Source: Nostoc sp. NMS7
Lineage (GTDB): Bacteria; Cyanobacteriota; Cyanobacteriia; Cyanobacteriales; Nostocaceae
DNA length: 64,000 nucleotides
Direction of reading: 5' to 3'
Assembly (NCBI RefSeq): GCF_017115085.1
Contig: NZ_JABXKJ010000248.1
Coordinates: 4,157-68,156, forward strand
Shown here: positions 25,688 to 45,688 of the stretch, in pieces
How positions within the stretch are numbered: the stretch's first letter is position 1
Layout: each line of letters opens with the position of its first letter
The notes under the pieces: model-generated
Database searches by the model: none
Seen by the model: only the letters and a program-made list of their open reading frames with translations
Told to the model about the DNA's origin: nothing
Position numbers and translations under genes: made by a program

Positions 25688-25844
25688 TGTACATTAAATA
25701 ATTATTGTCACTTTTAAAGAATTAATGTCCATTTTTTCCAAGTTCAGGGGCATAAGTTACGTAGTTTCGCGGCTTTCAGCAATTAAATCGGTTTTAAAGA
25801 ATTATTGTCCAGAGTTGAAACCAGTTTTAAAGAATTATTGTCCA
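25688..25844 (+). repeat. tRNA/CRISPR-proximal transposon end with four TnsB-type ~20-bp repeats
   Basis: Copies of the motif TTTTAAAGAATTATTGTCCA lie at 25692-25711 (terminal), 25712-25731, 25792-25811 and 25825-25844, all in direct orientation. Confidence 0.75.
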
Positions 25845-26033
25845 AAATCAGCCTGTAAAACTCGGCTAAATATATGTTTTCTAATTTAATTGATTACAGT
25901 AAGCCCAAGGCTCTTAAATTACAAGAGTAGCTTTAAAGCTCTTTATTTGCAGTCTAATTACAAAAATATACTACCTCTTGTTTTGCTGTTTCCACCCAAG
26001 AAGAGGCTCCAATAATATATAGCTGCGTTTTAC

Positions 26034-26063
26034 GTGCGATCGCAGCACTCCTTTCAAACCACC
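26034..26063 (-). ncRNA. delocalised short crRNA (truncated repeat + 17-nt homing spacer against tRNA-Ala)
   Basis: 26051-26063 matches the repeat 3' part at 12/13 positions. 26034-26050 is the exact reverse complement of tRNA positions 25633-25649. Confidence 0.7.
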
Positions 26064-26098
26064 CTAATACAGAATTATATAGCCAAAGTGCCATAAAA

Positions 26099-26645
26099 CT
26101 TTCTGCCTACCACCTAAAGGAGGGCTTTGGAAACCCCACACTCCCCTTTGCAGGTAAGACGTAAGACAACTTTAATTCCTTTCAACCCACCACCTAGCGG
26201 AAGGGCTTTAGAAACGAAATTCTCCAAAGCGCCAACTCCAATCCTCATCAGCTTTCAACCCACCACCTAGCGGGAGGGCTTTAGAAACGTTGCTGAAAGT
26301 TATCTTTTAATGGAGACTCGCCTTTCAACCCACCACCTAGCGGGAGGGCTTTAGAAACACCAATTAATCAGGTAGTTGGGGAGACGTTGGCTACTTTCAA
26401 CCCACCACCTAGCGGGAGGGCTTTAGAAACCTATCGTCGGGGTTCATAACGCTGGTTCAGTCAACTTTCAACCCACCACCTAGCGGGAGGGCTTTAGAAA
26501 CCCTGGAGTCGTTGAGTCGTTTTTTGTTACCCGCATCTTTCAACCCACCACCTAGCGGGAGGGCTTTAGAAACACGAATTAACCAGCAGGGCTTGCCTGT
26601 ATCAGAGACTTTCAACCCACCACCTAGCGGGAGGGCTTTAGAAAC
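26099..26645 (-). CRISPR. type V-K CRISPR array, 8 repeats / 7 spacers, transcribed on the minus strand
   Basis: The 37-bp repeat (minus sense) is GTTTCTAAAGCCCTCCCGCTAGGTGGTGGGTTGAAAG. Copies start at 26609, 26537, 26465, 26394, 26322, 26252, 26179 (1 mismatch) and 26099 (degenerate terminal copy). Spacers are 33-44 bp. Confidence 0.95.
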
Positions 26646-26789
26646 CCCACCCACGAAAACTCGTGCCAACAATGGTTTTTGAAGGCAAATTTGACAAGCC
26701 TTCTTTAATTCCTATTTTCTACAGCCAATGAATAAAATTTTATTCATGACTGAAACAGTAATACCCAGTGCAGACAAGAGTTTTGGACG

Positions 26790-27268
26790 ATTGGCAGCAC
26801 CCCAGGGATTTTGACCCCGCTTTGGCTTGCCAAAAATAAAAATTAGGGGGTGGTAGTTCGGTAGCCACCGTGACGGTATACCCGTACCCTTACTTTGTTG
26901 TAAAGTAAGAGGTAATGATCCTCCTCGTAAAACCAAAATCTAAGATTTCAGTAGTACAGGCCGCTCTGGCACCCAACACCAAGCTAAAAGAGTTTGATGT
27001 CAAGAGCTAAGGTTCTGGGCTGTTTGGAACCCTAACACCTTATACTTCCCATGCGTCTCGGTGCGAGTACTTTCTCATCTAACAGCAGTATTAGCTTACC
27101 CAAGCAATTACCACTAACAAACACTTAGATGATCGCACAGGTAGAGTTGGCAGCTACCAGGGCCAGAAAGAATACGCTTTTTAAGCGTTAAACTAACCCA
27201 TTCTTACAGTATTTACATAAAGGGGTCATACTGTCGCATCATTAATAGATGGCACCGATTTAATACAC
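26790..27268 (-). ncRNA. tracrRNA region (boundaries approximate)
   Basis: It lies between the cas12k stop and the array. The minus-strand blocks GGGTTAGTTTAACGC..CTTTCTGGCCCTGGTAGCTGCC (27149-27199) and GGTGGCTACCGAACTACCACCCCC (26846-26869) resemble conserved ShCAST tracrRNA blocks as I recall them. Confidence 0.6.
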
Positions 27269-27296
27269 CAAAATATAGAATATTGAGGTAGAAATT

Positions 27297-29384
27297 TTAT
27301 CTACCTAAAGTATTAATTCTGCATTGGTAAGCGTAAAATGCTAAATCTCTTGCTTGTTCTTCCAGAGTGCCATAATGAGGTTGGATACCATATTCAATAC
27401 TAATTTTAAATTCAGCAGCTTTCGACTTTATGGATTCTTGAAGTCTGTTGTAACTCCAATTGTGTATCTGACGGTTATATTCTTTTACGTATAATTTTTG
27501 ACCATTTACATCACCTGAAATTTTAGTCTCAGCTTTGGCTTGAATTGCACTGGTGCGAATTTCCCTTATATCTTTTAATCTAGGTAGTACAATACAACCT
27601 GCCTGATAAGACTTAGCGATTTCTACTATTCTCTTTGCTAGTAATTTTTCAATGTATTCACCTAGTTTCGATTCGCCTATATTACATGGTGAATCTTTTT
27701 TTTGAGCTTTTTTTCTCTCTATACTTAAATGTACTTGTTGCCGTCGTCTGCGGCTTAACAGGTGAAAAGCATCGCCTAGTAACTGTTTGACTGTATTACA
27801 GGCAAGTACTTTTTTAGTATTTATATCAACTATGGCAACCGTCGCTAACTCAACAGGATGAAAACTGATACCAACAATTATATTAGATTGACCTCGATAA
27901 ACTAGCTTACTAGGACGAGCAAATGAATTCTTAAGCCGAGATAATGAAGATTTATCTTTATTCAGTTGTATTTGTTGATTGTTCTCTAACTTTTTATTTT
28001 CTTCTGCTTTACTTAATCGTTTTTGTGCCTTGTCAGTCTTTTTATTTTCTTCTGCTTTACTTACTCCTTTTTGCGCCTTATCAGTCTTTTCTTTTCTCAC
28101 TTCTTCAGTACCCTCTGCTGTCCATAAACGAGCATCATAGGTACAATGCAGAGCTAATTTATGAACTTTCCACGGGTCACCCTTGCCTTCACATTGTTGC
28201 CATAGCAACTGTGCAGAACGTAGTGTAATTAAACTTCCTGAAAGTTTTTCTTCACTTTTCTCGCTTTTTTTAAAAGCTTTGTGGTCTTCTAGAAAGCGTT
28301 CAAAAAAATGACGTTGGCGTTTATTACAACAAATTTTAAAGTGATATTCACTCCAACCATTGAAGTAAACAACAATATTGCCCTCATTGTTTTTATACCA
28401 AGTTAAATCACCGTATAGATAATCTATAGGGTATGGTAAATGTGATATTTTCCTCGATAAATTAGCTATCCAGTCTTCCCACTCTTTATTATCTTTAGGT
28501 ACTTGATTCATTAAGTTGTCAAATGCTTCACTATATCTTTCTCCTGTTATATCTCTACCACTAGGTAATCGATTATCTTGAATTTGATTCTCTAGACGTT
28601 TTATCTCTACTTTTTTCTCATTACGACGCTTTTTTAGTTTTTGAACATCCTCCTCTACTTCACTAATTTTATTATGATTTTTTATCAGGTAAGCTACTGC
28701 ACATCGGGTTAGAATATCCTGTGTTTGTTTATGGATTTTATATAAAACATTAGTTAATGTTTCTAATTTATTTTCATCTACATTGTTTGGAGAACTAGAA
28801 TCTTCCCTTTGTTCTGCATTGGTACTTTTATTATAAATATTTCTGTTAACTCTTTTTCTAGCTGACTTGGTTTGTTTTACATCTTCATCATTAATAGTAA
28901 GTTGTTTTAGAAATTTTTCTGGTTGAGTAAGTACTTCTTGTGCTTTAGAACGTATTGTCTGTAAATCACAGTTACTTTCACCTACAAGTTCAACATCACT
29001 TTTAAGTATATTTTGGAGAAAGTATTCTTTACCCTCTTTCTGCCTTTTTCGTTTCTGATATAAAGTAAGCCATGAAGAATAAACCTCTTTTACAAAAGAC
29101 TCTGCTGATGAGCGAAGACGGCCTGATTGTTCTTCAATTTCAGGATTTTTTGTGACAATTTTACGTAATTCTACGATTTCTTTCTTAGTTATTTCTCCCT
29201 TTTCTTTATTAGCTTCAAATTCTGGTTGTTCGTTTACACTCTTTAACAATTGAACAATCAGAGGAGTATTTTTTTGAGTCATTTCTTCCCATACTTGGCG
29301 AAGTATATTTTCACTAGCATCTAAATGGCATCGTATGGTTCTATAGACTGAAATCGTGGATTTCTTCTTACGATCGCTACTCAT
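27297..29384 (-). CDS. cas12k: Cas12k (type V-K effector, nuclease-dead)
   Basis: 695 aa, collinear with ShCas12k as I recall it (YFNGWSEYHFKICCNKRQRHFFERFLED, LWTAEGTEEVRKEK, NSFARPSKLVYRGQSNIIVGISF, QLLGDAFHLLSRRRRQQ, IHNWSYNRLQESIKSKAAE). The RuvC-I position reads GISFH, with no Asp. Confidence 0.9.
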   Translation of the reverse strand: MSSDRKKKSTISVYRTIRCHLDASENILRQVWEEMTQKNTPLIVQLLKSVNEQPEFEANKEKGEITKKEIVELRKIVTKNPEIEEQSGRLRSSAESFVKEVYSSWLTLYQKRKRQKEGKEYFLQNILKSDVELVGESNCDLQTIRSKAQEVLTQPEKFLKQLTINDEDVKQTKSARKRVNRNIYNKSTNAEQREDSSSPNNVDENKLETLTNVLYKIHKQTQDILTRCAVAYLIKNHNKISEVEEDVQKLKKRRNEKKVEIKRLENQIQDNRLPSGRDITGERYSEAFDNLMNQVPKDNKEWEDWIANLSRKISHLPYPIDYLYGDLTWYKNNEGNIVVYFNGWSEYHFKICCNKRQRHFFERFLEDHKAFKKSEKSEEKLSGSLITLRSAQLLWQQCEGKGDPWKVHKLALHCTYDARLWTAEGTEEVRKEKTDKAQKGVSKAEENKKTDKAQKRLSKAEENKKLENNQQIQLNKDKSSLSRLKNSFARPSKLVYRGQSNIIVGISFHPVELATVAIVDINTKKVLACNTVKQLLGDAFHLLSRRRRQQVHLSIERKKAQKKDSPCNIGESKLGEYIEKLLAKRIVEIAKSYQAGCIVLPRLKDIREIRTSAIQAKAETKISGDVNGQKLYVKEYNRQIHNWSYNRLQESIKSKAAEFKISIEYGIQPHYGTLEEQARDLAFYAYQCRINTLGR

Positions 29385-29545: not shown

Positions 29546-29577
29546 AAAACATTGTCAAACATTGTTAAACATTATTG
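29546..29577. promoter_or_regulatory. three tandem AAACATT(G/A)T decamers in the cas12k / RHH divergent promoter region (candidate operator)
   Basis: The sequence is aaaacattgtc aaacattgtt aaacattatt. On the minus strand the middle copy overlaps a TTGACA hexamer facing cas12k. Confidence 0.4.
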
Positions 29578-29602: not shown

Positions 29603-29803
29603 ATGATGAACTGGCAACAAATCTTTGTAGTGTTGATGAGTCAAAGCGATCGCGTACAAACTTCCATATATTTCCCCAAAGATATCCACGAGGCATTGGT
29701 GAGATGGGCTGAGGAAGAAGACCGTCCCATCAGTAATCTTGTTGTGCGGCTTGTGAGTAAGGCAGTTGAGGAGCGGGAAAAGAAGCAAAATCCGCCGCAA
29801 TAA
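29603..29803 (+). CDS. ribbon-helix-helix (CopG/Arc-type) DNA-binding protein, divergent from cas12k
   Basis: The core VQTSIYFPKDIHEALVRWAEEEDRPISNLVVRLVSKAVEE has the beta-strand/helix/helix pattern of RHH repressors. The start is ambiguous (29582 TTG, 29603 ATG or 29636 ATG). Confidence 0.6.
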   Translation: MMNWQQIFVVLMSQSDRVQTSIYFPKDIHEALVRWAEEEDRPISNLVVRLVSKAVEEREKKQNPPQ

Positions 29804-30000: not shown

Positions 30001-31925
30001 ATGGCAATTAAAAAAAGTGAACTTTATAGTTCGTTATGGAAAAGCTGTGATGAACTGCGAGGTGGCATGGATGCCTCGCAGTATAAAGATTATGTACTAG
30101 TTTTATTGTTTGTTAAATATGTATCTGACAAATATGCAGGTGTAGCAGATGCACTGATTGAAGTGCCTGAAGGCGGAGGCTTCCAGGACATTGTTGCCCT
30201 CAAAGGACAGAAAGATATAGGGGATGGCATTAACAAAATTATCGCCAATTTAGCCGAAGCCAATGATTTAAAGGGTGTTATTGATGTAGCTGATTTCAAT
30301 GATGCCGATAAGCTGGGCAAGGGTAAGGAAATGCAAGATAGGCTTTCCAACTTGGTGGCGATTTTTGAAACCCCTGCTTTGAATTTTAGTAAGAACCGCG
30401 CCGATGGTGATGATATTTTGGGCGATGCCTATGAGTACCTGATGCGTAACTTTGCGACGCAATCAGGCAAAAGCAAGGGTCAATTTTATACTCCGGCGGA
30501 AGTCTCCCGTGTAATCTCTCAAGTTATTGGCGTTAATTCAGCCCAAAGTCAGAGTCAAACGATTTACGACCCGACTTGTGGTAGTGGTTCTCTGTTGTTA
30601 AAGTCGGCGGATGAAGCAGAACGGGGCTTAACCATCTACGGACAGGAGATGGACAACGCTACCCGCGCCTTGGCTCGGATGAACATGATCCTGCACGGAC
30701 ACCCTACTGCTGAAATTTGGCAAGACAATACTTTATCAACTCCTTACTTCAAAGATGCGGATGGTAGCCTGAAAACTTTTGATTTTGCTGTGGCTAATCC
30801 TCCCTTTTCCTCGAAGGCTTGGAGCAATGGACTTAATCTAGCCAAAGACGAATTTAAACGGTTTGATAACTATGGTATCCCTCCGGCTAAAAATGGGGAC
30901 TATGCTTTTTTGCTGCACATGGTTCGCTCCCTAAAAAGTCAAGGCAAAGGGGCGATTATTCTGCCGCATGGGGTGCTGTTTCGCGGGAATGCGGAGGCGG
31001 AAATTCGGAAAAATCTGATTAGCAAGGGAATTATCAAGGGGATTATTGGGCTACCGCCGAATCTGTTTTATGGGACGGGGATTCCAGCCTGCATTATTGT
31101 GTTAGACAAGGAAGATGCCGAGAATCGCCAAGGCATTTTTATGATTGATGCCAGCAAGGGGTTTGTTAAAGACGGCAATAAAAACCGCCTACGGGAGCAG
31201 GACATTCATAAAATTGTTGATGTCTTCAACAAACAGCTTGAAGTGGCGAAGTATTCGCGGATGGTGTCAGTTCAGGAAATTGCGGGGCATGAGTACAATC
31301 TGAATATCCCGCGCTATATCGACAGTCAGGAAGAGGAAGATATTCAGGATATTGAGGCGCATCTGTTGGGGGGGATACCCGCTATTTTAAAGCTGAACAG
31401 GCGGCGATCGCTACCTTGGAAACGAAAAAGGATGAAATTGTTCGCCAGCAGGAGGAACTGCAAGAAGAACATGGCGGTGAGGAGGGTTTGCTAGAGGAAG
31501 CCACTAATGACAGTGGGAAAATTACCAAAGCGAATGTCAATGATCGCATTAAGGCAATCAAGAATGATGCCACGTTTGCGGATGAGTTAAAGGTATTAAA
31601 GGCTTATTTAAAGCTGATTGAGCAAGAGGCGGAAATTAGTAAAGAAATTAAAGTATTGACTCAATTTTTGGATAATTATATTTTAACAAGATACGGGGAT
31701 TTAACCGAGGACGAGATAAAAACGCTGGTAGTAGATGATAAGTGGATGCCGACGTTAAGACAGGCGATCGCTTCAGAGATGGATCGGATTTCGCAACGGT
31801 TGACAAAGCGAATCCAGGAGTTGGCGGAACGATATGATACGCCTTTACCGGAGTTGACGAGTCGTGTGGAGGAGTTGACGGCTAAGGTTGAAGCGCATTT
31901 GCAGAGGATGGGGTTGGTGTGGTAA
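30001..31925 (+). pseudogene. hsdM: type I R-M methyltransferase subunit HsdM, reading frame broken at a G7 tract
   Basis: HsdM_N region (LWKSCDELRGGMDASQYKDYVLVLLFVKYVSDK) and N6-MTase motifs (DPTCGSGSLL, VANPPFS). After GGIP (31369-31380) the frame decays into an R/K-rich tail. The coiled-coil C-terminus continues in another frame (ORF 31416-31925). Confidence 0.8.
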
Positions 31926-32392
31926 CGGATAAACAGGAAGGAAACTATAAAATTTATCTTGATGTTTGTTGTCTAAATCGTCCTTTTGACGACTGCACAC
32001 AAGAGCGAGTTCGTTTAGAAGGGGAAGCTATTCTTAGCATTATGGAGCGCATTCGTATTAGAGAATGGCGACTTGTTACCAGCGAAGCTATCAGGGTGGA
32101 GTTAGAGAAAATGCGTAATCTCGACAAATTAGAGAATATATTAAAATTCTTGGAATTTGCTGTGATTACTATCAATATAGATGAAGGTGTAGATTTTCGC
32201 TCACAGCAATTGGAGAATTTAGGTTTTGGTCTTTATGATTCTTTTCATATTGCTTGTGCAGAAGTTGCTCAGGCAGATGTCTTACTTTCTACTGATGATC
32301 GGTTACTGAAGAACTCACTACGGCATCAAGGTTTGTTAAAAGTGTCTGTGGATAATCCTGTAACTTGGTTGATGAATACTTATTTAAATTAG
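31919..32392 (+). CDS. PIN-domain protein (toxin-like), paralog 1
   Basis: Contains YKIYLDVCCLNRPFDD ... DSFHIACAE ... LLSTDDRLL. It is 40-50% identical by eye to ORF 34169-34654. Its start overlaps the hsdM stop (GTGGTAA). Confidence 0.7.
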   Translation: MVTDKQEGNYKIYLDVCCLNRPFDDCTQERVRLEGEAILSIMERIRIREWRLVTSEAIRVELEKMRNLDKLENILKFLEFAVITINIDEGVDFRSQQLENLGFGLYDSFHIACAEVAQADVLLSTDDRLLKNSLRHQGLLKVSVDNPVTWLMNTYLN

Positions 32393-32404
32393 GAGGATAA
32401 ATAA

Positions 32405-32605
32405 ATGATGACACCAATTGAGTTGAGAAAAAAAGGTTATCAAATTTTAGTAGAACATTTGGGTCAAGTAGATGCTATTCGCTTTTTACAACAAGCTGGA
32501 TGGGGAAGCGGTGACTATACACAAGAAAGAAAGGAAACGTTAGATAAAGTCACAAGAGAAGAGTTTTGGGAAGACCTGAAGCGGATTAGAAAAACATCGT
32601 GTTGA
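32405..32605 (+). CDS. small partner protein of PIN paralog 1 (antitoxin-like)
   Basis: MTPIELRKKGYQILVEHLG..DAIRFLQQ..GSGDYTQER is a paralog of ORF 34641-34856. Its last codons are supplied by the 21-bp repeat array. Confidence 0.5.
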   Translation: MMTPIELRKKGYQILVEHLGQVDAIRFLQQAGWGSGDYTQERKETLDKVTREEFWEDLKRIRKTSC

Positions 32606-32705
32606 AGTACCCAAACATCGTGTTGAAGTACCCAAACATCGTGTTGCAGTACCCAAATATCGTGTTGAAGTACCCAAATATCGTGTTGAAGTACCCAAAT
32701 ATCAT
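32588..32705. repeat. tandem array of ~5.5 units of a 21-bp repeat related to the 6474-6690 array
   Basis: The unit is tacccaaa(c/t)atcgtgttgaag, head to tail. It shares the core ccaaa-n-atcgtgttgaag with the array at 6474. Confidence 0.85.
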
Positions 32706-32740
32706 ATAGAAAGGTTAATTAAGCTCTTTAAACGATTTAC

Positions 32741-32840
32741 GCAGAGGATTAAGGAGTTGGTGGAACGGTATGATATGCCTTTATAAGAGTTAACGGCTAA
32801 GGTGGAGGGGCATTTGCAGAGAATGGGGTTGGTGTGGTGA
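32741..32840 (+). other. degenerate duplicate of the hsdM 3' end (scar) abutting hsdS
   Basis: About 85% identical to 31795-31925 with a ~22-nt deletion. It ends with the same ...GGGGTTGGTGTGGTGA junction, which overlaps the hsdS GTG start. Confidence 0.7.
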
Positions 32841-34159: not shown

Positions 34160-34168
34160 TTAAATAAT

Positions 34169-34654: not shown

Positions 34655-34856
34655 ATTATATAGAAAAGGATTTCAAGCCTTAGTAGATGCTTTGGGATAT
34701 CCTGATGCTATCCGGTTTATTCGCCAATTTGACAACGGAAGTGGAGACTACACCCAAGAACGTCATCAATGGCTCGATCAGCTAACGATGGATGAAATCC
34801 TCACAGACATTAAGCAACGCCAAAAAATATCTGACTCCAAGAATCAGGAACAATAA
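34641..34856 (+). CDS. small partner protein of PIN paralog 2 (antitoxin-like)
   Basis: Contains MTPIELYRKGFQALVDALGYPDAIRFIRQFDNGSGDYTQER. It overlaps the PIN gene by 14 nt. Confidence 0.5.
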   Translation: MTPIELYRKGFQALVDALGYPDAIRFIRQFDNGSGDYTQERHQWLDQLTMDEILTDIKQRQKISDSKNQEQ

Positions 34857-34945
34857 TGAGCCAAGTTGGACAACGGGAACGCCTAAGCCAAAACCGCAAA
34901 CAGGGAATCATGCAAGAATTATTAACCGGAAAGACAAGACTAATT
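34856..34945 (+). other. chimeric scar: hsdR 5' remnant fused to hsdS 3' remnant
   Basis: 34856-34898 is about 80% identical to the hsdR start (35802-35844). 34899-34945 is about 85% identical to the hsdS 3' end (34093-34140). The translation reads MSQVGQRERLSQNR|KQGIMQELLTGKTRL. Confidence 0.6.
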
Positions 34946-38800: not shown

Positions 38801-38846
38801 TTGCGATCGCATTTTTGAAATAGTCAAGAGCCAAAGCGAGTATTAG
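35802..38846 (+). CDS. hsdR: type I restriction endonuclease subunit HsdR
   Basis: 1014 aa. N-terminal nuclease region (PDIVLYVNGIAIGVLELK), helicase motifs (TQGSGKSLTM; VDECHRTQSG; TGTPL) and a C-terminal helical domain. Confidence 0.95.
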   Translation: MSKVGQRELPTQNRIVQLFQQQLNYRYLGNWHYRPNNSNIETEILSTFLGDKQGYSNSLITKALYELNKVAGDKSLYDINKEVYSLLRYGVKVKEEVGENTQTVWLINWEEPLENDFAIAEEVTVKGKNPKRPDIVLYVNGIAIGVLELKRSIISVSEGIRQNLDNQKSIFIKSFFTTMQLVMAGNDTEGLRYATIETPEKYFLTWKEDTNSDITDPLDKHLLQLCAKERFLELIHNFIVFDRGIKKVCRHNQYFGVNAAQSYLRRREGGIIWHTQGSGKSLTMVWLTKWIRENITDARVLIITDRDELDKQIENVFKGVNEAIYRTTSGKDLINKLNSTTTWLLCSLIHKFGKKDKADDADYNSYIEELKRSLPSDFSAKGDIYVFVDECHRTQSGTLHDAMKEILPNAVFIGFTGTPLLKKDKQNSINVFGDYIHTYTFKKAVADQVILDLRYEARNVDQNITSQTKIDQWFEAKTRGLTEHAKTLLKKRWGNLQKVLSSKSRLERIVSDILLDFETKDRLQSGHGNAMLISGSIYQACKYYELFQSAGFIKCAIVTSYKPSPNDIKGESTGEEELTEKLRQYEIYQKMLNGKAAEVFEDEVKNKFVEEPAQMKLLIVVDKLLTGFDAPSATYLYIDKTMRDHGLFQAICRVNRLDGEDKEYGYIIDYKDLFKSLEKSINDYTSEAFEDYEPDDIDGLLSDRIAKGRERLENSRESIKALCESVEQPQDTHAYIRYFCGADTENPDFIKENQQQRIALYKYTSALVRAYANLSNDMAEAGYTTTETEIIKQEVKHYEQVRAEVKLASGDYIDLKAYEPAMRHLIDTYIGAEESEIISAFDDMTLIQLIVERGANAVEALPKGIKQNQEAVAETIENNLRKVIIDQQPTNPKYFDKMSTLLNELIQARKAASQNYKAYLQKIVELSKQVAQPSSSSQYPQSLNSPAKRALYDNLNQDEALALAINDAIRKIKKDGWRGNIMKEREVKNAIKKYLDSPEDCDRIFEIVKSQSEY

Positions 38847-38847
38847 G

Positions 38848-39552
38848 ATGCACCAAATAACTGTCGGTGAACTCGTCATAGACGTTGCCAGAAAAGACAT
38901 TAAAAACTTGCACTTGGCAGTGTACCCCCCCGATGGTCGAGTACGTATCGCCACACCCTTAAACATTGATGACGAAGCTGTGCGTTTATTCGCTATCTCC
39001 AAACTAGCCTGGATTGAAAAGCATAAAGCTAACTTTGAAACGCAAGAACGCCAGTCAAAAAGAGAATTTGTATCTGGTGAAAGTCATTACTTTCAAGGAA
39101 AACGCTATTTATTAAATGTCATTTATGGACTGGGTAATCCCAAAGTAGAAGTTAGAAATAATACTTATATCGACCTTTATGTTAGAGAAGGAAGTAATGA
39201 AGCGCAACGCCAACAAGTCATGATGTCTTGGTATCGACAGCAGTTAAAACAGGAAATTCCCCCATTAATCGAAAAATGGCAAAGGAACATGGGAGTAAAG
39301 GTTGAGGACTGGGGGATAAAGCTGATGAAAACCAAATGGGGTACTTGCAACATCCAAGCAAAACGTATCTGGCTCAACCTCGAACTAGCGAAAAAAGATA
39401 AGCGTTGCCTAGAGTATGTTGTAGTTCATGAAATGGTGCATCTGTTAGAACGTCATCACGGCGATCGCTTTGTGGCTTTCATGAATAAGTTTCTGCCGAA
39501 TTGGAAATTTTGTAAGGATGAGTTAAACCGCTCCCCACTTGGAAGCTATTAA
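38848..39552 (+). CDS. DUF45/M48-type (YgjP-like) zinc metallopeptidase
   Basis: HEMVHLLERHH zinc motif near the C-terminus. It starts 2 nt after the hsdR stop. Confidence 0.8.
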   Translation: MHQITVGELVIDVARKDIKNLHLAVYPPDGRVRIATPLNIDDEAVRLFAISKLAWIEKHKANFETQERQSKREFVSGESHYFQGKRYLLNVIYGLGNPKVEVRNNTYIDLYVREGSNEAQRQQVMMSWYRQQLKQEIPPLIEKWQRNMGVKVEDWGIKLMKTKWGTCNIQAKRIWLNLELAKKDKRCLEYVVVHEMVHLLERHHGDRFVAFMNKFLPNWKFCKDELNRSPLGSY

Positions 39553-39814: not shown

Positions 39815-40726
39815 TCAAAATAGCTTACTCCAGTTACGACGAAGAATTACACCACGATAGTCTTCGATATAACTCAATGCTGCTCGATTGGTATCAATTA
39901 CTTCTTCAAAATCTCTTGCTTTATCACGAATGTTAACCGAGCGGAGCTTTTGAAGGATTTGCTCGGCAGAATCTAATAGGTTTCTGTGATATTCAACTGA
40001 TTCATCAAATGAGCTTCGCCTGGATGCAAGAGTCTGTGTTCTCAAAGTCTGCAAGTAATGACGAAATGACTCTGATTCCCTAAATCCAGTGGAGCTAGGC
40101 TGAGATCCGCTAAAGAGAATTTTTGCCTCCCAAATAAGGTCACTATTACTAGGTAAGTTTGGTAGCAACAAATAAGATTCTGAAGCAAACCAAGTATTTT
40201 GAAAGGCTTGATTAAGTCCTTGTTGCCAATTATTAATTTTTGCCTCTATCACGATTAATCGTTGGATCGCAAAAATTTCTTCTAATGGTTTAGCTTCCCA
40301 TCTACCTTCCTTGCAATGAATAAGATTTGCCTCAAGTAAACGGCGTAATGATTTGTAGAAATAATTAGGGAAAACCATTTCTAATGTTGATGTTTCAACA
40401 CTAAGTTCAGAAAATATATAATGCAAAATACGTAAGTCAAGCTTAGTAATTTTTAACCTTGTAGGCAACCATTTTTTAGCAATATCAGGTTGAAAGTAAA
40501 CAATAACAATATCAGGAAATCCTGAATCAATTTGAGGCTCTAAAAAAATGAATTTTAACTCCCCATTTTCCGATGGTGATAATAATTTTGATTGAATATA
40601 TTTGTATACCATTTCATATTCAACACCTTTAGTTGGCTTTCTCAATGATAAACTAAGCGTTCCTAAAGATGGAAACTCTTGAAAATTTTCTGACTGAATA
40701 ATAATAGTATGTGAAGAAAGTTGCAT
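39815..40726 (-). CDS. hypothetical protein with PD-(D/E)xK-like motifs and an inserted wHTH-like segment
   Basis: 303 aa. GFPDIVIVYF and IVIEAKINNWQQGLNQAFQ resemble nuclease motifs II/III. A very AT-rich 300-bp region lies upstream. Confidence 0.5.
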   Translation of the reverse strand: MQLSSHTIIIQSENFQEFPSLGTLSLSLRKPTKGVEYEMVYKYIQSKLLSPSENGELKFIFLEPQIDSGFPDIVIVYFQPDIAKKWLPTRLKITKLDLRILHYIFSELSVETSTLEMVFPNYFYKSLRRLLEANLIHCKEGRWEAKPLEEIFAIQRLIVIEAKINNWQQGLNQAFQNTWFASESYLLLPNLPSNSDLIWEAKILFSGSQPSSTGFRESESFRHYLQTLRTQTLASRRSSFDESVEYHRNLLDSAEQILQKLRSVNIRDKARDFEEVIDTNRAALSYIEDYRGVILRRNWSKLF

Positions 40727-41030: not shown

Positions 41031-41543
41031 TTAGTAAGCTTTATGTCGCTTTTTCATACTTCTAAAAGGAGCATGGCATTTGTTACATTCTCCCTGTTCC
41101 CATAACGCTGGGATAGTAAAACGCTCTTTGCAAAAGGGACATTCTGAAAGTAGACGTAACTTGTGGCGATCGCACCCCACGGTTGATTGAAACTGCCACT
41201 CTAATCGATGATATGGTTGCTCTACATAACACACAGCACACAACCGTATTGGCTCCATTTTCATTTTTTCACCCTTGGGCGGGAGCATTTGAGCAATTCG
41301 ATCTACATCTAAACCAATTAATTTAGCAATTGCCTCTAATTCCTTTTGACTGGGAACCGGATTCAACCGAAATTTCTCCCACCTTGCTAATACTGGGCCA
41401 ATTCCTGCGGCTTTACTTAAACTACCAGGAGACGAGACGCAAACTGCTTCGTGTCGCCTAAATCGTCCAAAATAGTGACTAATACTCTCCCCTTCGTTGG
41501 GTTCTACATACCAAGGCGGATGTTGAACAGCTTCTGGCTCCAT
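41031..41543 (-). CDS. tniQ: TniQ (short, type V-K form)
   Basis: 170 aa. N-terminal EGESISHYFGRFRR, HTH-like middle, and C-terminal zinc-ribbon cysteines (CAVC...CDRH...CPFC...CNKC). Confidence 0.85.
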   Translation of the reverse strand: MEPEAVQHPPWYVEPNEGESISHYFGRFRRHEAVCVSSPGSLSKAAGIGPVLARWEKFRLNPVPSQKELEAIAKLIGLDVDRIAQMLPPKGEKMKMEPIRLCAVCYVEQPYHRLEWQFQSTVGCDRHKLRLLSECPFCKERFTIPALWEQGECNKCHAPFRSMKKRHKAY

Positions 41544-41669
41544 AACTTACATTTAAATACCTAAACGGCTTGCTATAGACTAGGAAAATAAAACTGTTTA
41601 ACAACTGCCATAGTAGTCCAGTCAGGTATCTTGGCAGGCAGCAAGCTGGTTGAAATCCTGGATGCTAAG

Positions 41670-41719
41670 AGTATTATTCGGTTAACCGAATCTAATTGTT
41701 CGGTTAACCGAATAATACT
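41670..41719. promoter_or_regulatory. double palindrome (two TTCGGTTAACCGAA sites inside a larger 21-bp inverted repeat)
   Basis: agtattattcggttaaccgaa-tctaattg-ttcggttaaccgaataatact. It lies 127-176 bp upstream of the tniQ start. Confidence 0.4.
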
Positions 41720-42028
41720 ATCAAAGAGTGCGATCAGAAATTTTAGGAATCTTTTCTCGCCTATCTCGCCAAAGCCTCGTGGATATCTTGGGCGGAAAGA
41801 TTATATCGAAGTTTGTCCGCGATCGCTTTGGCTTATCAACTTTAGAAAGATTTATCGCCAGATCCATCAGATCGCTGCAACCTTCTTTAAAAACTCAAAA
41901 AGGTTTAGCAATGTTTTTTAATGTGTGACAATGTTTGTATGCTAAAGTAAGAATATTGAAAAACACTAATTTAATGCTTGCAGTAACTTGAAGAATGCTT
42001 ATAGCTTTTGAGATATGGGAAAGCCTCT

Positions 42029-42340
42029 ATGCGTGATATTCTCCCCCAAATACCGCCAGTAGCAATGCCAGAGGTAATTCCCAGCGAATTACCCCAGCAG
42101 AAATATCATCTCGGTGAATGGGTGCGCTGGTTTCAAGTACTCAATGGCGATTTTGGTCGTGTCATCGGAGTAATCTACACCCAACAAGCTAGTTGCATCG
42201 CCACTGGCTTGCACTACTTGATTTTGTTAGATGAGCGCAGTCCCTCTCGTGACACCTGTACCTGCGACTTCGCTTTCGAGGATGATATCGAATCCTTGGA
42301 TAATTCATCCTTGCTACGGCTTAGGGGCAATCATGTCTGA
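42029..42340 (+). CDS. hypothetical protein (opposite strand to the tns genes)
   Basis: 103-aa ORF from the ATG at 42029. Its stop overlaps the next ORF's start (ATGTCTGA). Confidence 0.4.
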   Translation: MRDILPQIPPVAMPEVIPSELPQQKYHLGEWVRWFQVLNGDFGRVIGVIYTQQASCIATGLHYLILLDERSPSRDTCTCDFAFEDDIESLDNSSLLRLRGNHV

Positions 42341-42617
42341 AACTCAAAATTTTCAGCAGTTGCTAAAACTGCACAACCAAATATTTATGTCCCCTCAAGA
42401 CTTTAGTTACCGTTGGGGATTGGGTTACGAAGAATTAGCAAAAATCTGTGCCATCTCTAAATCTACGGCTTATCACTGGTTGAGTGGACAAGCCAGCCGC
42501 CGAGAAGCTGGATTGCCTTACCAGAGAATTATGGCTGTGGCTGATTTTCTTTTCACCAACGCCGAAGTAATTAACCCACTGTTGGAACAGTGGCATAATT
42601 CTCAACCACCAAATTAA
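42333..42617 (+). CDS. small helix-turn-helix protein
   Basis: YEELAKICAISKSTAYHWLSG is a classic HTH. It is coupled to the upstream ORF. Confidence 0.6.
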   Translation: MSETQNFQQLLKLHNQIFMSPQDFSYRWGLGYEELAKICAISKSTAYHWLSGQASRREAGLPYQRIMAVADFLFTNAEVINPLLEQWHNSQPPN

Positions 42618-42825
42618 TTCTTCAGTTTTTGCAAATTGACAAAACTTTTCTTCATCACCTTGACTGACATAAAAAATAGGTAGTAGGGTGCAATTTATCG
42701 TCACCAGCCTACCCACTGTTCCATGAACCGCTCCACCAATGACTCTTATTACCTGCCCTCCAGTATTGAATTGACACAAAACCATGTCCTGATTCATCGC
42801 TTGGCAATCCCTCTCAAAAATGCCA

Positions 42826-43572
42826 TCAGCTACTTACAACAATTCCCCCACTCAGAACATCTTGAGTAAGAAATTTTTGCTCCCAATCGTCCACAACTTC
42901 AATAACATCTTCTTCAGTTAAGTTGGGAAACTCGTATGGCTCTAAAAATGAGTCATGAACGCGCACGTATGGAAGACTTTTTCGTTCGAGAATATTATCA
43001 CTTAAATAGTAAGTTCCAACCAAGATAATAGGGATTCGTCGTTTCGTAAAAATATCAATTAGTTCGTTAAATCCTTCCAAAGTTAGGTAGTCAGCATTAC
43101 CAACTATGAGTATTTTGACACCATAGCTTTTAAGAGTTCCCCATGCCCGCGATCGTAAATCTCGCAGCGCTCCAATATTAGTAAGCGGATGACCCACTTC
43201 TTCTAGAATTGAGTAATACAAATCTGTTGGGCCACCATGCTGATCAATTTCGGCATAAATAACAGTCGCCGGAATTTCTAACAATGTCCCTCGCCGTTTT
43301 ACATATTGCATCCTATAGAGTTGGCAAGATTTCAGCAAACCAGAACCTGTAGCAGATGTAACATAACCACAGAGTTTTGCATCACGCTGGTCATCAAGCC
43401 AGTCAAATAATTCTGTATCGCGGTCTAATGGTAAGTAAGTGTCAGCTTTACCAATTCGCTCAACTTCAGCTTGGATCTTTGGTGAGCGACGCAGTTCCTC
43501 AGCAGACTGTAAACTAGCATCAAACTGCTTCTGAAGTTTTGGTTCTACATGGGCTAAGTTAGTCTCTGACAT
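42826..43572 (-). CDS. tnsC: TnsC-like AAA+ protein with degenerate Walker motifs and truncated C-terminus
   Basis: Collinear with ShCAST TnsC as I recall it (LFDWLDDQR..., VIYAEI...GGPTDLY, PIILVGT, WEQKFL). However, it reads TSATGSGLLKS in place of GESRTGKT and ILIVGNAD in place of LIIDEAD. At 248 aa it ends about 55 aa early. Confidence 0.8.
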   Translation of the reverse strand: MSETNLAHVEPKLQKQFDASLQSAEELRRSPKIQAEVERIGKADTYLPLDRDTELFDWLDDQRDAKLCGYVTSATGSGLLKSCQLYRMQYVKRRGTLLEIPATVIYAEIDQHGGPTDLYYSILEEVGHPLTNIGALRDLRSRAWGTLKSYGVKILIVGNADYLTLEGFNELIDIFTKRRIPIILVGTYYLSDNILERKSLPYVRVHDSFLEPYEFPNLTEEDVIEVVDDWEQKFLTQDVLSGGIVVSS

Positions 43573-43577
43573 TTTAC

Positions 43578-43775
43578 TTACCAGTTATCTTTCACAAATT
43601 GGTTCCAATTTTGTACCCCTACTCTCGGTCGTCTAGCCTTGGTAGTGCGATTAGTTTCAGATTTGTCCTGTTTGTCTATAGAATTTACAGGTTTTTGTGA
43701 GGCAATATCAGGTGCAGATGTAAAACTTTCTTGTGATATAGTTGTTTCCTCCAGTATTGCATTTTCAGGAAACAT
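43578..43775 (-). other. detached C-terminal tail of TnsB (same frame, downstream of the TAA)
   Basis: This ORF is in the same frame as tnsB, 10 sense codons after the stop at 43806-43808. It ends 5 nt before the tnsC ATG, where an intact tnsB would be expected to end. Confidence 0.5.
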
Positions 43776-43805
43776 TTCAACAATTTTCGATCTATTAGAC
43801 TTTTG

Positions 43806-45479
43806 TTACTGTTTTACTTGAGCTTTTCTTTGCCGTTTTCTACGACTTTTACGTTCTTGTTCCACGTCCTCAAATATATTTAGTCGTTCATTCAAAATTG
43901 AAGAATTATCAACTTCCTTAGCTTCCACCCGAAGCTTCTTCTTAATCCAATTTAATTCCCCCAGAGAAAGCCTCTCTTTTTCTAAATCCCTAGCTTTTAC
44001 AATACCAATAAACTCTCCTGGTTGACCGTCAAGAGGACGAGTATAAGCAAGCAGAGTTACAATATTGCGCTGGTCATATCTTAAGGAAATTTTCTGACCT
44101 TCATACTTTACTAAAGAATCTCCCTGATACACCAAACCTCCAAAGTTGGCAGAACCATATTTTTCGACATTCCGATACGCAACTTTCATTAAGCAGATGT
44201 CTAATTCACGTTCATCGAAAACTTCTGGATCACTTAAGAGCATTGATTTCCAGCGTTTAATACGTTTTTGGTTTTTTACCTTTGGATAATCATGCTGATT
44301 GTAGTGGTCTACAAAATATCTCACTAATATTCTTTCTAGCTTATCAAGTGTTAAACATGCAGTTCTCTCTGCTTCTTTAGGGCGTTCCTCAATACTCGAT
44401 CCGGTATATCCTCCATATAAAGACAAAACTTCCTTATTAATCTTGTCAAATATAGTCTCAATTAAACCGCCTGCCGATGGAAAAGCACGTAGCCGACGTT
44501 GGAAACCTAACTGTAGCGAAATTTGCTTCAAATGTGCAGACTTAAATTCCTTGGCGCGGTCTGTAACTAAATATTCTGGAACACCGAGAATATCCCATTC
44601 TTCTTGCAGTTTGTACTCTGGTTCGTAATGCTTTGGCAACATTGAATGACGAAAGGCAAGTGCAACTTCATGTGACCCAGCAGCCTCATATCCCAAATAA
44701 AACCCAACCACACAACCAGAATAGCTATCCATCACTAATGTTATGTAAGGGCGACCAATAATTTCTTTGTCTTCATCATCAATCAACAAAATATCTAACT
44801 TGGTATGGTCAACCTGCCAAATCTGGTTGCTATGGGTAATTTCTAAAATTCCTTCAGTTGTCTGAATAATTTGTCCTTCTGTTGGTGAACCGGGATGGCG
44901 AACTATTCTGCTTTCTTGGTCAATATTAAAATTTATAACTTTATAGACGGTGACATGAGAGGGACACTTTCTCTCTATTAAATCCTTTAATACCTCTGGG
45001 TATTGTTTGAATTTTTCAGCATACTTTTTAGAGCGTAGTTCTTCACCCTTAGATGCCAAAGCTATCAAGTATCCGTGAATTTGATTATGATTTACCCGCG
45101 AACCCTCTTTTTGACCCCATTTATGAATTTCAACTATAAATTGGAACCATTGTTTGCTAATACGAAACTGCCCTTTATCCTGACGACCAACTGCAAGGGT
45201 AGCAACTCCGTCTTTTTGAACTCTCTCAACCATTCGTCTTATAGTTCGGATGCTTTTGCCAAGTGTTTTAGCAGCCTCTGCGATCGCCTCTCTGCGAGTA
45301 TTCTTATCAGGTGCTTGCACAATGGCATCAATGACATCGACTTTTTGCTGAAACTCTGGCGCATCATCATTGAACAGTAGATAAGGCTTTCCCTCTACCT
45401 GCTCCCCACCCTGCTCCGTAGCAACAACTTCCTCATGATCGGAGAGATTAGTGCCTTGACTCAAAGAACGCGTAGACAT
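43806..45479 (-). CDS. tnsB: TnsB DDE transposase (Tn7/Mu-like), prematurely terminated
   Basis: N-terminal HTH domains and a DDE core (IWQVDHTKLD; YLVTDRAKEF; GGLIETIF). 557 aa up to an in-frame TAA. Confidence 0.9.
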   Translation of the reverse strand: MSTRSLSQGTNLSDHEEVVATEQGGEQVEGKPYLLFNDDAPEFQQKVDVIDAIVQAPDKNTRREAIAEAAKTLGKSIRTIRRMVERVQKDGVATLAVGRQDKGQFRISKQWFQFIVEIHKWGQKEGSRVNHNQIHGYLIALASKGEELRSKKYAEKFKQYPEVLKDLIERKCPSHVTVYKVINFNIDQESRIVRHPGSPTEGQIIQTTEGILEITHSNQIWQVDHTKLDILLIDDEDKEIIGRPYITLVMDSYSGCVVGFYLGYEAAGSHEVALAFRHSMLPKHYEPEYKLQEEWDILGVPEYLVTDRAKEFKSAHLKQISLQLGFQRRLRAFPSAGGLIETIFDKINKEVLSLYGGYTGSSIEERPKEAERTACLTLDKLERILVRYFVDHYNQHDYPKVKNQKRIKRWKSMLLSDPEVFDERELDICLMKVAYRNVEKYGSANFGGLVYQGDSLVKYEGQKISLRYDQRNIVTLLAYTRPLDGQPGEFIGIVKARDLEKERLSLGELNWIKKKLRVEAKEVDNSSILNERLNIFEDVEQERKSRRKRQRKAQVKQ

Positions 45480-45505
45480 ACACTTGACCTGTCTTCCAAG
45501 AAAAA

Positions 45506-45688
45506 TGACATCATTTACTTTAAAAGTTTATCAGATAAATGACATCATTTGCTTTAAAACTTGCGAGAGAATAATAAAAGCAGAAATATAGCTCAAAGAC
45601 TTTTGTAGTAAGGCTTTGAGCTTGTTGGACATTTATCGTAAAACTGGACATTAATTCTTTAAAAGTGACAATAATTATTTAATGGACA
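45506..45688 (-). repeat. tnsB-proximal transposon end with five TnsB-type repeats
   Basis: Copies of the motif (reverse complement of TTTTAAAGnAATnATGTCCA) lie at 45506-45525, 45540-45559, 45626-45643, 45645-45664 and, terminally, at 45665-45688. Confidence 0.75.

Follow-up and report, generated by a model that had tools for sequence, protein, structure and literature searches.

ShCAST, the type V-K system of Scytonema hofmanni ('V1'), was reportedly described by Strecker and colleagues in 2019 and is represented by many solved structures. Natural V-K CRISPR-associated transposons (CASTs) have a canonical layout (Ziemann et al., 2023, PMC9938897). The GTN PAM, the delocalised truncated repeat with a 17-nt anchor spacer next to a tRNA, and the Arc_2 type of regulator are described in the same work (PMC9938897). 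The V-K_V2 subgroup is known from Nostoc-type cyanobacteria (Ziemann et al., 2025, Microlife, PMC12416283). Its hallmarks are a repeat 3' end GGTGGTGGGTTGAAAG, an anti-repeat AACUACCACCCCC, an Arc_2/RHH regulator, a long tracrRNA, a large TnsB, a divergent TnsC and a typical PAM-to-end distance of 54 nt (PMC12416283). We found no experimental transposition of any V2 system in the literature examined.

The 64-kb stretch of DNA analysed here (the window; coordinates are positions in it and strands are relative to it) contains a discrete type V-K CAST of about 20 kb at 25688-45688. A first-pass annotation had proposed a Cas12k/TnsB/TnsC/TniQ CAST 3 nt past a tRNA-Ala, and profile or structure-sequence searches identified every defining component, with Cas12k and TnsB each matching their own families. 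The order is tRNA / anchor guide / array / tracrRNA / cas12k / divergent regulator / cargo / tniQ-tnsC-tnsB, equal to the canonical natural layout, as had been recognised. Judged by its sequence, the element is a V-K_V2 CAST. The copy had been called atypical; the features behind this are present, but they are published V2 hallmarks and not peculiar to the window copy. We consider it highly likely that this V-K_V2 CAST homed to tRNA-Ala(CGC) in a Nostoc-like cyanobacterium, has since decayed and is probably immobile on its own.

The element resembles ShCAST in its four-protein machinery and overall mechanism. TniQ, TnsB and Cas12k score 195, 361 and 466 bits against the solved chains, whereas TnsC reaches only 76 bits. 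Compared with ShCAST, the V2 tracrRNA is longer and the PAM-to-insertion distance shorter, and the V2 regulator is of the Arc_2 type, in contrast to the MerR-type CvkR of AnCAST. The V2 element of NIES-4073 (Scytonema/Kalymmatonema sp.) shares with the window copy GGTGGTGGGTTGAAAG and AACUACCACCCCC, a conserved cas12k-to-array region of ~650 nt, a divergent Arc_2/RHH_5 gene, a TnsC that is probably of the 306-aa type, a large TnsB (633 aa), a PAM-to-end distance close to 54 nt, a tRNA-Ala target, type I restriction-modification cargo and a Cas12k of 72% identity. Unlike it, the window copy has a tnsB interrupted by a nonsense codon, a shortened tnsC, 22 nt missing from the tracrRNA region, 16 duplicated residues in Cas12k and a 1.3-kb block that separates tnsC from tniQ; its PAM-to-end distance is 55 rather than 54 nt, and it lacks a target-site duplication.

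The target and the two ends are as follows.
25612-25684, + strand: tRNA-Ala(CGC), the attachment-site gene (ARAGORN; Rfam tRNA 62.5 bits).
25630-25649, + strand: GTA PAM (25630-25632) and 17-nt anchor protospacer GAGTGCTGCGATCGCAC (25633-25649), inside the tRNA.
25688-25844, + strand: array-side end ('LE' in Ziemann's naming), the terminal TGTACA... repeat and three more ~20-bp TnsB-site repeats.
45504-45688, - strand: tnsB-side end, the terminal repeat and four more TnsB-site repeats.
45689-46297, + strand: tnsB-side flank, an MZB/DUF1998 helicase-like gene reduced to its last ~203 codons, with the frame open from the boundary.

The first TGT of the element is at 25688, after a 3-nt spacer (TCT) beyond the tRNA. 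The termini, TGTACATTAAATAATTATTGTCAC (25688-25711) and TGTCCATTAAATAATTATTGTCAC (reverse complement of 45665-45688), reproduce the 23/24 identity first reported, and the inverted repeat extends to 43 of 44 matching positions. These terminal sequences match only two places in the 64 kb, with none expected by chance. All nine copies of the sub-terminal ~20-bp motif counted in the first pass were located, four on the array side (25692-711, 25712-731, 25792-811, 25825-844) and five on the tnsB side (45665-684, 45645-664, 45625-644, 45538-560, 45504-526). The PAM lies 55 nt from the transposon end; the orthologues have TT in place of TCT and thus 54 nt, and we counted the 55 nt as agreeing with the V2 distance. 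The window copy lacks a 5-bp target-site duplication (flanks CATCT and ACTGC). The truncated flank gene is consistent with a later adjacent deletion.

Orthologous elements occur at the same tRNA-Ala(CGC) in Nostoc sp. KVJ20, Nostoc sp. DedQUE05 and a Nostoc MAG (GCA_036919695.1). They have the same attachment site and flanking genes and similar restriction-modification cargo, and tnsB and tnsC are 98% identical to the window at the DNA level (Cas12k, 87-90%). In them, tnsB (633 aa) and tnsC (306 aa) are both intact, the array has fewer repeats (three to seven) and the cargo differs in its details. In several Nostoc genomes, related elements are found in the same chromosomal surroundings (RtcB, HAD hydrolase, tRNA-Ala ... 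rplL operon), as could also be expected of a vertically inherited genomic island that merely resembles a transposon. That reading is largely refuted and, in our view, extremely improbable: the same termini recur in related genomes, the KVJ20 element has a CCATG target-site duplication on both sides, and a metagenome contig (L047) contains the empty site with both flanks. In addition, the NIES-4073 elements are located at tRNA-Ala(GGC) with a different anchor spacer that matches that tRNA, and elements are arranged in tandem, end to end, at four loci (L008, L010, L015, L018). The discreteness of the unit, on which the first-pass annotation depended, is therefore upheld. A solo end remnant is present in L039.

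Between the array-side end and cas12k are the guide-encoding features.
26034-26064, - strand: delocalised homing guide, a truncated repeat R* GGGTGGTTTGAAAG (26051-26064) followed by a 17-nt anchor spacer (26034-26050).
26099-26645, - strand: CRISPR array, seven repeats of GTTTCTAAAGCCCTCCCGCTAGGTGGTGGGTTGAAAG and a degenerate eighth.
26646-27296, - strand: predicted tracrRNA_V2 region, from conservation with V2 relatives.

The anchor spacer matches the tRNA at 17 of 17 positions (25633-25649) beside the GTA PAM, and R* and the anchor spacer are identical in KVJ20, DedQUE05 and the Nostoc MAG. The array consists of seven near-perfect 37-nt repeats at 26179-26645 and the degenerate repeat at 26099-26134, eight in total. 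Six of the spacers are 33-36 nt long and one is 44 nt. The repeats end ...GGGTTGAAAG, and their 3' end GGTGGTGGGTTGAAAG is the V2 signature. The predicted tracrRNA region has cas12k on one side and, on the other, a short array whose 37-nt repeats end in GTTGAAAG, which is the arrangement of a V-K system. This region shows 90% mean column identity with five V2 relatives, including Scytonema NIES-4073, whose tracrRNA has been detected by northern blot (PMC12416283). It contains the putative anti-repeat 2, AACTACCACCCCC (reverse complement of 26846-26858), with the V2 motif AACUACCACCCCC. The long tracrRNA-like region and eight-repeat array of the first pass would correspond to a conserved ~650-nt region with an anti-repeat and to seven plus one degenerate repeats. 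The window copy lacks 22 nt of the tracrRNA region, a hairpin segment close to its 5' end.

Upstream of this region are cas12k and its divergent neighbour.
27297-29384, - strand: cas12k, 695 aa (NCBIfam NF038191 Cas12k, 791 bits, cut-off 150 bits, E 7.5e-238).
29547-29576, + strand: three tandem 10-bp repeats (AAACATTGTC/T...), a candidate operator in the cas12k-regulator interval (TRF).
29603-29803, + strand: Arc_2-type ribbon-helix-helix regulator, 66 aa from the ATG at 29603 (ORF listed from 29582).

The position of the RuvC-I Asp is a Ser in the alignment of both the window Cas12k and ShCas12k, in keeping with the claim that the protein lacks this residue. Its 695 aa, compared with 679 aa in the closest relatives, match a 48-bp (16-aa) in-frame tandem duplication at 27990-28097 (TRF). 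We took V2 membership to mean a Cas12k >60% identical to V2 members and at most ~47% identical to V1; identity is 60-90% to a Nostocales group that includes NIES-4073 and is followed by proteins at ≤43%. The regulator gene, divergent from cas12k, matches Pfam RHH_5 (7.5e-11), and relatives have 66-aa RHH_5 genes in the equivalent position.

The cargo was identified with Pfam, PADLOC and tblastn using a relative's 803-aa HsdM.
30001-39552, + strand: cargo region.
30001-31494, + strand: hsdM (type I restriction-modification) with an internal deletion; C-terminal fragment at 31416-31925.
31919-32392, 34169-34654 and 35076-35698, + strand: PIN and Phd-like toxin-antitoxin genes.
32834-34159, + strand: hsdS (type I restriction-modification).
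35802-38846, + strand: hsdR (type I restriction-modification).
38848-39552, + strand: YgjP-like metallopeptidase.
39815-40726, - strand: 303-aa cargo ORF (no match in Pfam, NCBIfam or PADLOC).

Neither cas1/cas2 nor interference nuclease genes turned up when the ORFs of the element were scanned with Pfam, NCBIfam and PADLOC, as the first reading had it. The TnsA family had no match among the scanned ORFs of at least 100 aa (all but one, antisense inside tnsB). The Tn7-like genes of a V-K CAST, tnsB, tnsC and a short tniQ, are present, although tnsB and tnsC are damaged in the window copy.
41031-41543, - strand: tniQ, 170 aa, intact (Pfam TniQ; matches ShTniQ over its whole length).
41544-42857, - strand: tnsC-tniQ intervening block, common to a V2 sub-lineage.
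42826-43572, - strand: tnsC, 3'-truncated, 248 aa, with residues 1-238 homologous (306 aa in relatives).
43578-45479, - strand: tnsB, interrupted by an in-frame TAA into a 557-aa ORF and a 65-aa tail ORF.

A DDE transposase, an AAA+-like TnsC and a short TniQ had been placed at this end. The first two stand, but TniQ was probably mis-assigned. The 120-aa ORF beside tnsC (42435-42797) has no matches and we rejected it as TniQ, whereas the 170-aa ORF matches both Pfam TniQ and ShTniQ. The distance from tniQ to tnsC is 1.28 kb. In the intervening block, a decayed Arc_2-like ORF (~41721-41930) is accompanied by AAACATTG repeats that lie upstream of tniQ. The block also contains two small + strand ORFs and a fragment of a 437-aa gene, namely its first 46 codons.

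The tnsB region is 99% identical over all 633 residues of a relative's TnsB. Codon 558 (43806-43808) is TAA in the window and GAA in relatives, so that TnsB stops at residue 557 and loses 76 C-terminal residues. The 65-aa ORF at 43578-43775 is the C-terminal tail. The complete tnsB ORF is 633 aa in both loci in which it was read (L001, L002), and in every V2-clade locus (L001-L020) the tail can be recognised downstream of tnsB. The tnsC gene has lost its last 68 codons to a 3.25-kb deletion corresponding to 10718-13974 of L001. Its ORF matches the AAA_22/TniB profile, and residues 1-238 are 96-98% identical to 306-aa V2 TnsCs; a length of 306 aa with N- and C-terminal extensions was our criterion for a V2 TnsC. 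Full-length homologues extend beyond the end of the window copy in the alignment; of the 29 related loci examined, 25 have a TnsC ORF of 300 aa or more, and in 17 its length is 306 aa. By analogy with the ShCAST literature, the lost C-terminus may be the region that contacts TnsB.

The lesions might be artefacts of assembly or sequencing, with the real element intact. The TAA arises from a single-base change and may reflect a sequencing error; alternatively, low-level read-through may occur. Mis-assembly across repeats can also give deletions, and relatives hold a second partial tnsC nearby. However, the tnsC junction is outside the duplicated tnsC segment, the junction of the 3.25-kb deletion is clean, and there are five independent lesions of differing kinds: the tnsB nonsense codon, the tnsC 3' loss, the 22-nt tracrRNA-region gap, the hsdM internal deletion, and a tnsB-side flank deletion into the neighbouring gene. 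We therefore regard an artefact as very improbable and favour a truly decayed copy.

The first-pass annotation implicitly read the locus as a fully functional autonomous CAST. An ORF exists for each of the four core genes, neither end is damaged in its inverted repeats or TnsB sites, the anchor guide matches its target perfectly, and the DDE residues of the 557-aa ORF align with their ShTnsB counterparts. Partial activity might also survive in the truncated TnsB or TnsC. Against this, full-length tnsB and tnsC, which we took to define autonomy, are both lacking in the window copy, the tracrRNA region has its deletion and no target-site duplication is found; we consider autonomy improbable.

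How a V2 element moves can be proposed from ShCAST homology and published V-K biology. Nuclease-dead Cas12k would bind the long tracrRNA and a crRNA, and the delocalised 17-nt anchor crRNA would pair with the anticodon-arm region of the tRNA-Ala beside the GTA PAM. TniQ and TnsC, assembled on the PAM-distal side, would recruit the DDE transposase TnsB. Insertion by TnsB would take place ~54 nt downstream of the PAM, leaving the tRNA intact and the array-side end closest to it. Array spacers may direct secondary hops into other DNA. The Arc_2 ribbon-helix-helix repressor probably controls cas12k via the 10-bp tandem repeats, which we infer to be its operator.

The TnsC step may differ from that of ShCAST. 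The window TnsC and all 28 related loci have GSGLL where Walker A would be GK[TS] (GKT in ShCAST) and IVGN where Walker B would be hhhhDE (GN in place of the ShCAST Asp-Glu), and V2 TnsCs also lack the aligned Arg residues of ShCAST TnsC. The same Walker-less state is found in ~17 clusters at 50% identity. V2 TnsC is under purifying selection despite the missing Walker A and B residues. Missing Walker motifs in some V-K TnsCs were already noted in a 2024 review (PMC11406308).

A non-autonomous but still mobile element is also conceivable: with intact ends, Cas12k and guides, it could be moved in trans by the TnsB and TnsC of another V2 CAST in the same genome. Its ends are conserved, as are the TnsB-binding repeats, genomes often contain several V-K CASTs and tandem elements, and six species harbour V1 and V2 systems together (PMC12416283). 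For a related cyanobacterial family, it has been suggested that degraded Tn7-like elements are mobilised in trans (PMC11837452). Yet there is no second tnsB, tnsC or cas12k within the 64-kb window, and the missing target-site duplication and hsdM decay suggest long residence without movement, so that we hold continued mobility to be rather unlikely.

For the favoured reading of a decayed, immobile copy, the tnsB nonsense codon and the tnsC 3' truncation make RNA-guided transposition by the window copy alone unlikely. Its ends, cas12k, tniQ and guides remain; at most, an intact V2 element at another place in the genome could mobilise it in trans. For the V2 family, a TnsC without Walker motifs means that the ATP-dependent TnsC filament mechanism of ShCAST may not transfer in detail.

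The element at 25688-45688, behind the tRNA-Ala(CGC) gene, is a real type V-K CRISPR-associated transposon (CAST), correctly classified in the first-pass annotation; its defining genes, ends and guide were found. It adds one partly decayed element to the V-K_V2 subgroup, which had been described before (Ziemann et al., 2025, PMC12416283), and its attachment site is also found in several Nostoc genomes. It is not a new type of system and is unsurprising to a specialist.

Features of the element and its attachment site (Sh, Scytonema hofmanni V-K reference)
25612-25684: tRNA-Ala(CGC) gene (ARAGORN and Rfam)
26034-26050, minus strand: 17-nt anchor spacer GAGTGCTGCGATCGCAC, directly after R*
26051-26064, minus strand: truncated repeat R* of the delocalised homing guide, GGGTGGTTTGAAAG, ~35 nt beyond the degenerate last repeat
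26099-26134, minus strand: degenerate eighth repeat, after a 44-nt spacer
26179-26645, minus strand: seven 37-nt CRISPR repeats, six perfect and one with a single mismatch
27297-29384, minus strand: cas12k, 695 aa (NCBIfam Cas12k, 791 bits, cut-off 150)
Divergent from cas12k: regulator gene, RHH_5 ribbon-helix-helix protein
29547-29576: AAACATTGTC repeats upstream of this cas12k-side regulator
Cargo: type I restriction-modification system, several PIN/Phd toxin-antitoxin genes, a YgjP-like peptidase and a 303-aa ORF without assigned function
41031-41543: tniQ, 170-aa ORF (Pfam TniQ; 195 bits to ShTniQ, end to end)
tnsC: 248-aa ORF (AAA_22/TniB domains)
tnsB: 557-aa ORF (361 bits to ShTnsB)

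The element starts with TGTACATTAAATAATTATTGTCAC at 25688, three bases past the tRNA gene, and is closed at 45688 by an inverted near-perfect copy, TGTCCATTAAATAATTATTGTCAC. These two are the only matches to the terminus in the 64-kb window, with 0 expected by chance, and the terminal inverted repeat extends to 43/44 bases. Sub-terminal ~20-bp repeats of the TTTTAAAGAATTATTGTCCA type occur in four copies at the tRNA-side end and in five at the opposite end. Motif search and direct reading thus agree with the termini and repeat counts of the first-pass annotation. From ShCAST assays the tnsB end is expected to face the target, and the orientation of the element was therefore doubted. We dropped this doubt, since an array-side end adjoining the tRNA is the natural norm for V-K CASTs (PMC9938897). 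HIP1, the cyanobacterial motif with the palindromic octamer GCGATCGC, occurs within the anchor protospacer (25640-25647) and spacer (26036-26043), at the tnsB-side junction (45693-45700) and at several further places in the element.

The eight-repeat array described on first pass consists of the seven 37-nt repeats and the degenerate eighth. Six spacers of 33-36 nt lie between the seven repeats, followed by the 44-nt spacer. The anchor 17-mer is identical to tRNA-Ala 25633-25649, GTA precedes the protospacer, and the PAM-to-end distance is 55 nt. As a rule in natural V-K CASTs, the tRNA faces the array-side end, the guide combines a ~12-nt R* with a 17-nt anchor spacer, and a GTN PAM lies 46-82 nt from the end (PMC9938897, Ziemann et al., 2023). 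The homing guide in the window has exactly the same arrangement. The array spacers matched nothing in the plasmid collection, and neither the window nor the fetched loci contain a self-target. The cas12k end of the element had no near match among plasmids either.

Between cas12k and the array lie 650 nt that include the tracrRNA region; aligned with five V2 relatives, they have a mean column identity of 90%. No Rfam family matched the tracrRNA region, and the tRNA was the only Rfam hit. Covariation across the six sequences, at 90% identity, gave only 11 compensatory pairs, not enough to prove a structure or to refine it. Scanned for a promoter consensus, Nostoc sp. KVJ20 has TAGATA-18-TATAAT at the stop of cas12k; the same scan gave nothing equivalent in the window.

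The Cas12k and TnsB assignments hold, with the profile and ShTnsB scores listed in the table. Cas12k also scores 466 bits against solved ShCas12k chains, and both proteins have Ser at the RuvC-I Asp position. In TnsB the DDE positions are conserved in an alignment to ShTnsB. TnsC is far more distant, with only 76 bits to ShTnsC. The short TniQ reported beside tnsC was misplaced: the true TniQ is the 170-aa ORF, and the 120-aa ORF adjoining tnsC has no match and overlaps better-supported opposite-strand features. As first noted, no cas1, cas2 or nuclease effector gene was found. No tnsA was found in the element, and no second tnsB, tnsC, tniQ or cas12k in the window. The cas12k-side regulator is a ribbon-helix-helix protein and not a MerR-type CvkR.

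A second Arc_2-like ribbon-helix-helix ORF, frameshifted in the window (41721-41960, minus strand), lies directly upstream of tniQ. It is preceded by repeats of the AAACATTG type that resemble those upstream of the cas12k-side regulator. The ORF is also found among related loci, in L001 (14906-15198) and just upstream of tniQ in L004, L008, L009, L013 and L021, and only in the V2 sub-lineage with a 1-4 kb block between tnsC and tniQ. It may reflect separate regulation of tniQ, or past recombination between elements.

V-K_V2 elements have an alternative longer tracrRNA (~450 nt on a northern blot of Scytonema sp. NIES-4073 RNA), a second anti-repeat AACUACCACCCCC, a repeat 3' end GGTGGTGGGTTGAAAG, Arc_2 regulators exclusively, an enlarged TnsB, a 306-aa TnsC and a constant PAM-to-end distance of 54 nt, and are confined to Nostocales (PMC12416283). 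The repeat 3' end in the window matches GGTGGTGGGTTGAAAG, the anti-repeat AACTACCACCCCC is the reverse complement of 26846-26858, and the RHH_5 regulator fits the Arc_2 criterion. Cas12k falls in a group of 60-90% identity that includes NIES-4073 (72%), followed by a clear fall to <=43%. Over 238 residues, TnsC shares 96-98% identity with the members of a 306-aa protein family. By every V-K_V2 feature that can be tested, the element belongs to this subgroup. The long Cas12k, long tracrRNA-like region, odd TnsC and non-MerR regulator, which had been called atypical, are therefore explained as V2 traits. The CRISPR-array-targeting Tn7-like family (PMC11837452) was rejected as a source of the odd TnsC; that family has a fused TnsAB and TnsD.

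A comparison with related genomes, the check named in the first-pass annotation, found the same site occupied in relatives and empty in the metagenome contig L047. V2 elements with an identical anchor spacer lie behind tRNA-Ala(CGC) in Nostoc sp. KVJ20, Nostoc sp. DedQUE05 and a Nostoc MAG, with a common left-hand flank of RtcB and HAD hydrolase genes. The rplL operon lies beyond the tnsB-side end in the Nostoc loci L013, L015 and L021, as in the window. Both junctions are visible in KVJ20, where the target-site duplication CCATG is the tRNA 3' CCA plus TG. In L047, the RtcB-HAD-tRNA-Ala flank and the rplL operon flank are 852 bp apart without CAST sequence. In the metagenome contig L039, ~45 bp of the array-side CAST end stands alone behind tRNA-Ala, near 7249 (minus strand reading). 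The NIES-4073 element is at tRNA-Ala(GGC), and its anchor spacer is correspondingly different.

Two elements lie end to end in L008, L010, L015 and L018, separated by 5 bp, or by 9 bp in L015. In KVJ20, a different Tn7-like element has its end (TGTACATTCGCAAATTCAATGTCGCA...) directly against the V2 element. The tandem elements fit repeated homing to one PAM-defined position.

Back-to-back CAST ends in related loci
L004: ~7840-7887
L008: 7864/7870
L010: 7887/7893
L015: 7875/7885
L018: 7881/7887

Between tRNA-Ala and the rplL operon, gene fragments have piled up, and they differ from strain to strain. The 852-bp stretch of L047 (4717-5568) ends in a short-chain dehydrogenase gene fragment. On the other flank, the HAD hydrolase and RtcB genes of the relatives L031, L033 and L034 are separated by a gene for a 295-aa methyltransferase; at this place the window has just ~640 bp (24178-24818) of patchy similarity. 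In the close relative L001, the tnsC-tniQ block contains, at 11230-12440, fragments of a second tnsC (157-aa ORF, ~82% identical) and a second tnsB (203-aa ORF, ~72% identical). Both are left over from another V2 element that was nested or recombined into the first one.

The window copy is damaged at several points. Codon 558 of tnsB is TAA in the window and GAA in relatives, and a 65-aa ORF in frame with tnsB (43578-43775) is the TnsB C-terminal tail. Full-length ORFs in relatives read 633 aa, and the window matches them at 99% over all 633 positions. The tnsC gene departs from its relatives past residue 238 and stops at 248. Compared with L001, 3.25 kb (L001 10718-13974) are missing, from tnsC codon ~240 into an opposite-strand 437-aa gene of which 46 codons are left. 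For the 1.3 kb between tnsC and tniQ, an insertion into tnsC had been considered, but the comparison with L001 showed this deletion instead, within a block common to a whole sub-lineage. The TnsC C-terminus contacts TnsB (literature cited in PMC12416283). In the tracrRNA region, 22 nt present in 5/5 relatives are gone; they are predicted to form a small hairpin close to the 5' end. Cas12k has gained 16 aa through a 48-bp in-frame tandem duplication, in a region variable among Cas12k proteins. In hsdM, the equivalent of profile positions ~459-642 is missing and the C-terminal part is in another frame.

Related elements encode an HsdM of 801-803 aa; compared with it, hsdM (30001-31925) has an internal deletion, while hsdR (1014 aa) and hsdS appear intact. 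The hsdM deletion may leave the restriction-modification cargo inactive. A 21-bp tandem repeat, AAACATCGTGTTGAAGTACCC (5.3 copies, 96% matches), occupies 32592-32703 in the gap upstream of hsdS.

The window element has no target-site duplication (CATCT vs ACTGC). Its tnsB-side flank holds the final ~203 codons of a helicase-like MZB/DUF1998 gene, whose reading frame is open from the boundary. A deletion appears to have run outward from the tnsB-side end; outward deletions are expected for replicative, TnsA-less transposons. The stretch 45689-46545 holds the helicase-like fragment and then a small ORF (46270-46545) that has an RNA polymerase omega (Rpb6) domain and directly precedes the rplL-rplJ-rplA-rplK-nusG operon. 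In the ORF for ribosomal protein L10 (47116-47760, 214 aa) there is a 30-bp tandem repeat (47121-47226, 3.5 copies, 94% matches), which would yield a repetitive protein extension. Across the window and its relatives, one tRNA-Ala hot spot is thus seen empty, with a fresh insertion and duplication, with tandem accretion, with internal decay and with a solo end remnant. The main value of the window copy is as one stage of this series at a single tRNA site.

The unusual TnsC is shared by the relatives. We aligned the window protein and those of 28 related loci to ShTnsC.

TnsC motifs in ShTnsC and in the window protein and its relatives
Walker A: GESRTGKT in ShTnsC; SATGSGLL (or similar) in the window and relatives
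Walker B: IIDEAD in ShTnsC; IVGNAD, IVNQAD and similar in the window and relatives
Aligned arginine-rich segment: ERFRAHLRF in ShTnsC; DSFLEPYEF in the window and relatives

The Walker A lysine and the Walker B acidic pair are absent and the aligned arginines are lost in the window protein and in 28/28 related loci. A profile search of 1.84 billion representative proteins gave two TnsC groups. About 17 clusters (50% identity) lack the Walker A lysine, and the lower-scoring canonical TnsCs all retain GK[ST]. In Crocosphaera, Symplocastrum, Phormidesmis, Stenomitos and Nodosilinea, the Walker-less TnsC is encoded between the TnsB gene and a short TniQ gene, and one of these divergent loci has a Cas12k gene in range. 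Pairwise dN/dS of V2 tnsC is 0.09-0.14, a sign of strong purifying selection; therefore these are functional proteins. Multiple V-K TnsCs are known to be without canonical Walker motifs and may not bind ATP (Hsieh and Peters, 2024, Annu Rev Biochem, PMC11406308), so a Walker-less TnsC is not a new discovery here. It is not discussed in the V2 paper (PMC12416283). In ShCAST the ATPase activity of TnsC is essential, whereas V2 TnsC has no ATPase motifs. Walker B mutations abolish ShCAST transposition (PMC9881144). We give about even chances to the reading that V2-type TnsC, here and in all relatives examined, is a conserved natural pseudo-ATPase in elements that clearly moved. The damaged window copy adds nothing further to this question.

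CASTs attract practical interest as tools for programmable DNA insertion. The conserved proteins without ATPase motifs raise a mechanistic question for V2, namely how a Walker-less TnsC works. If the pseudo-ATPase reading is true, V-K_V2 CASTs would neither bind nor hydrolyse ATP when they pick targets and recruit TnsB.
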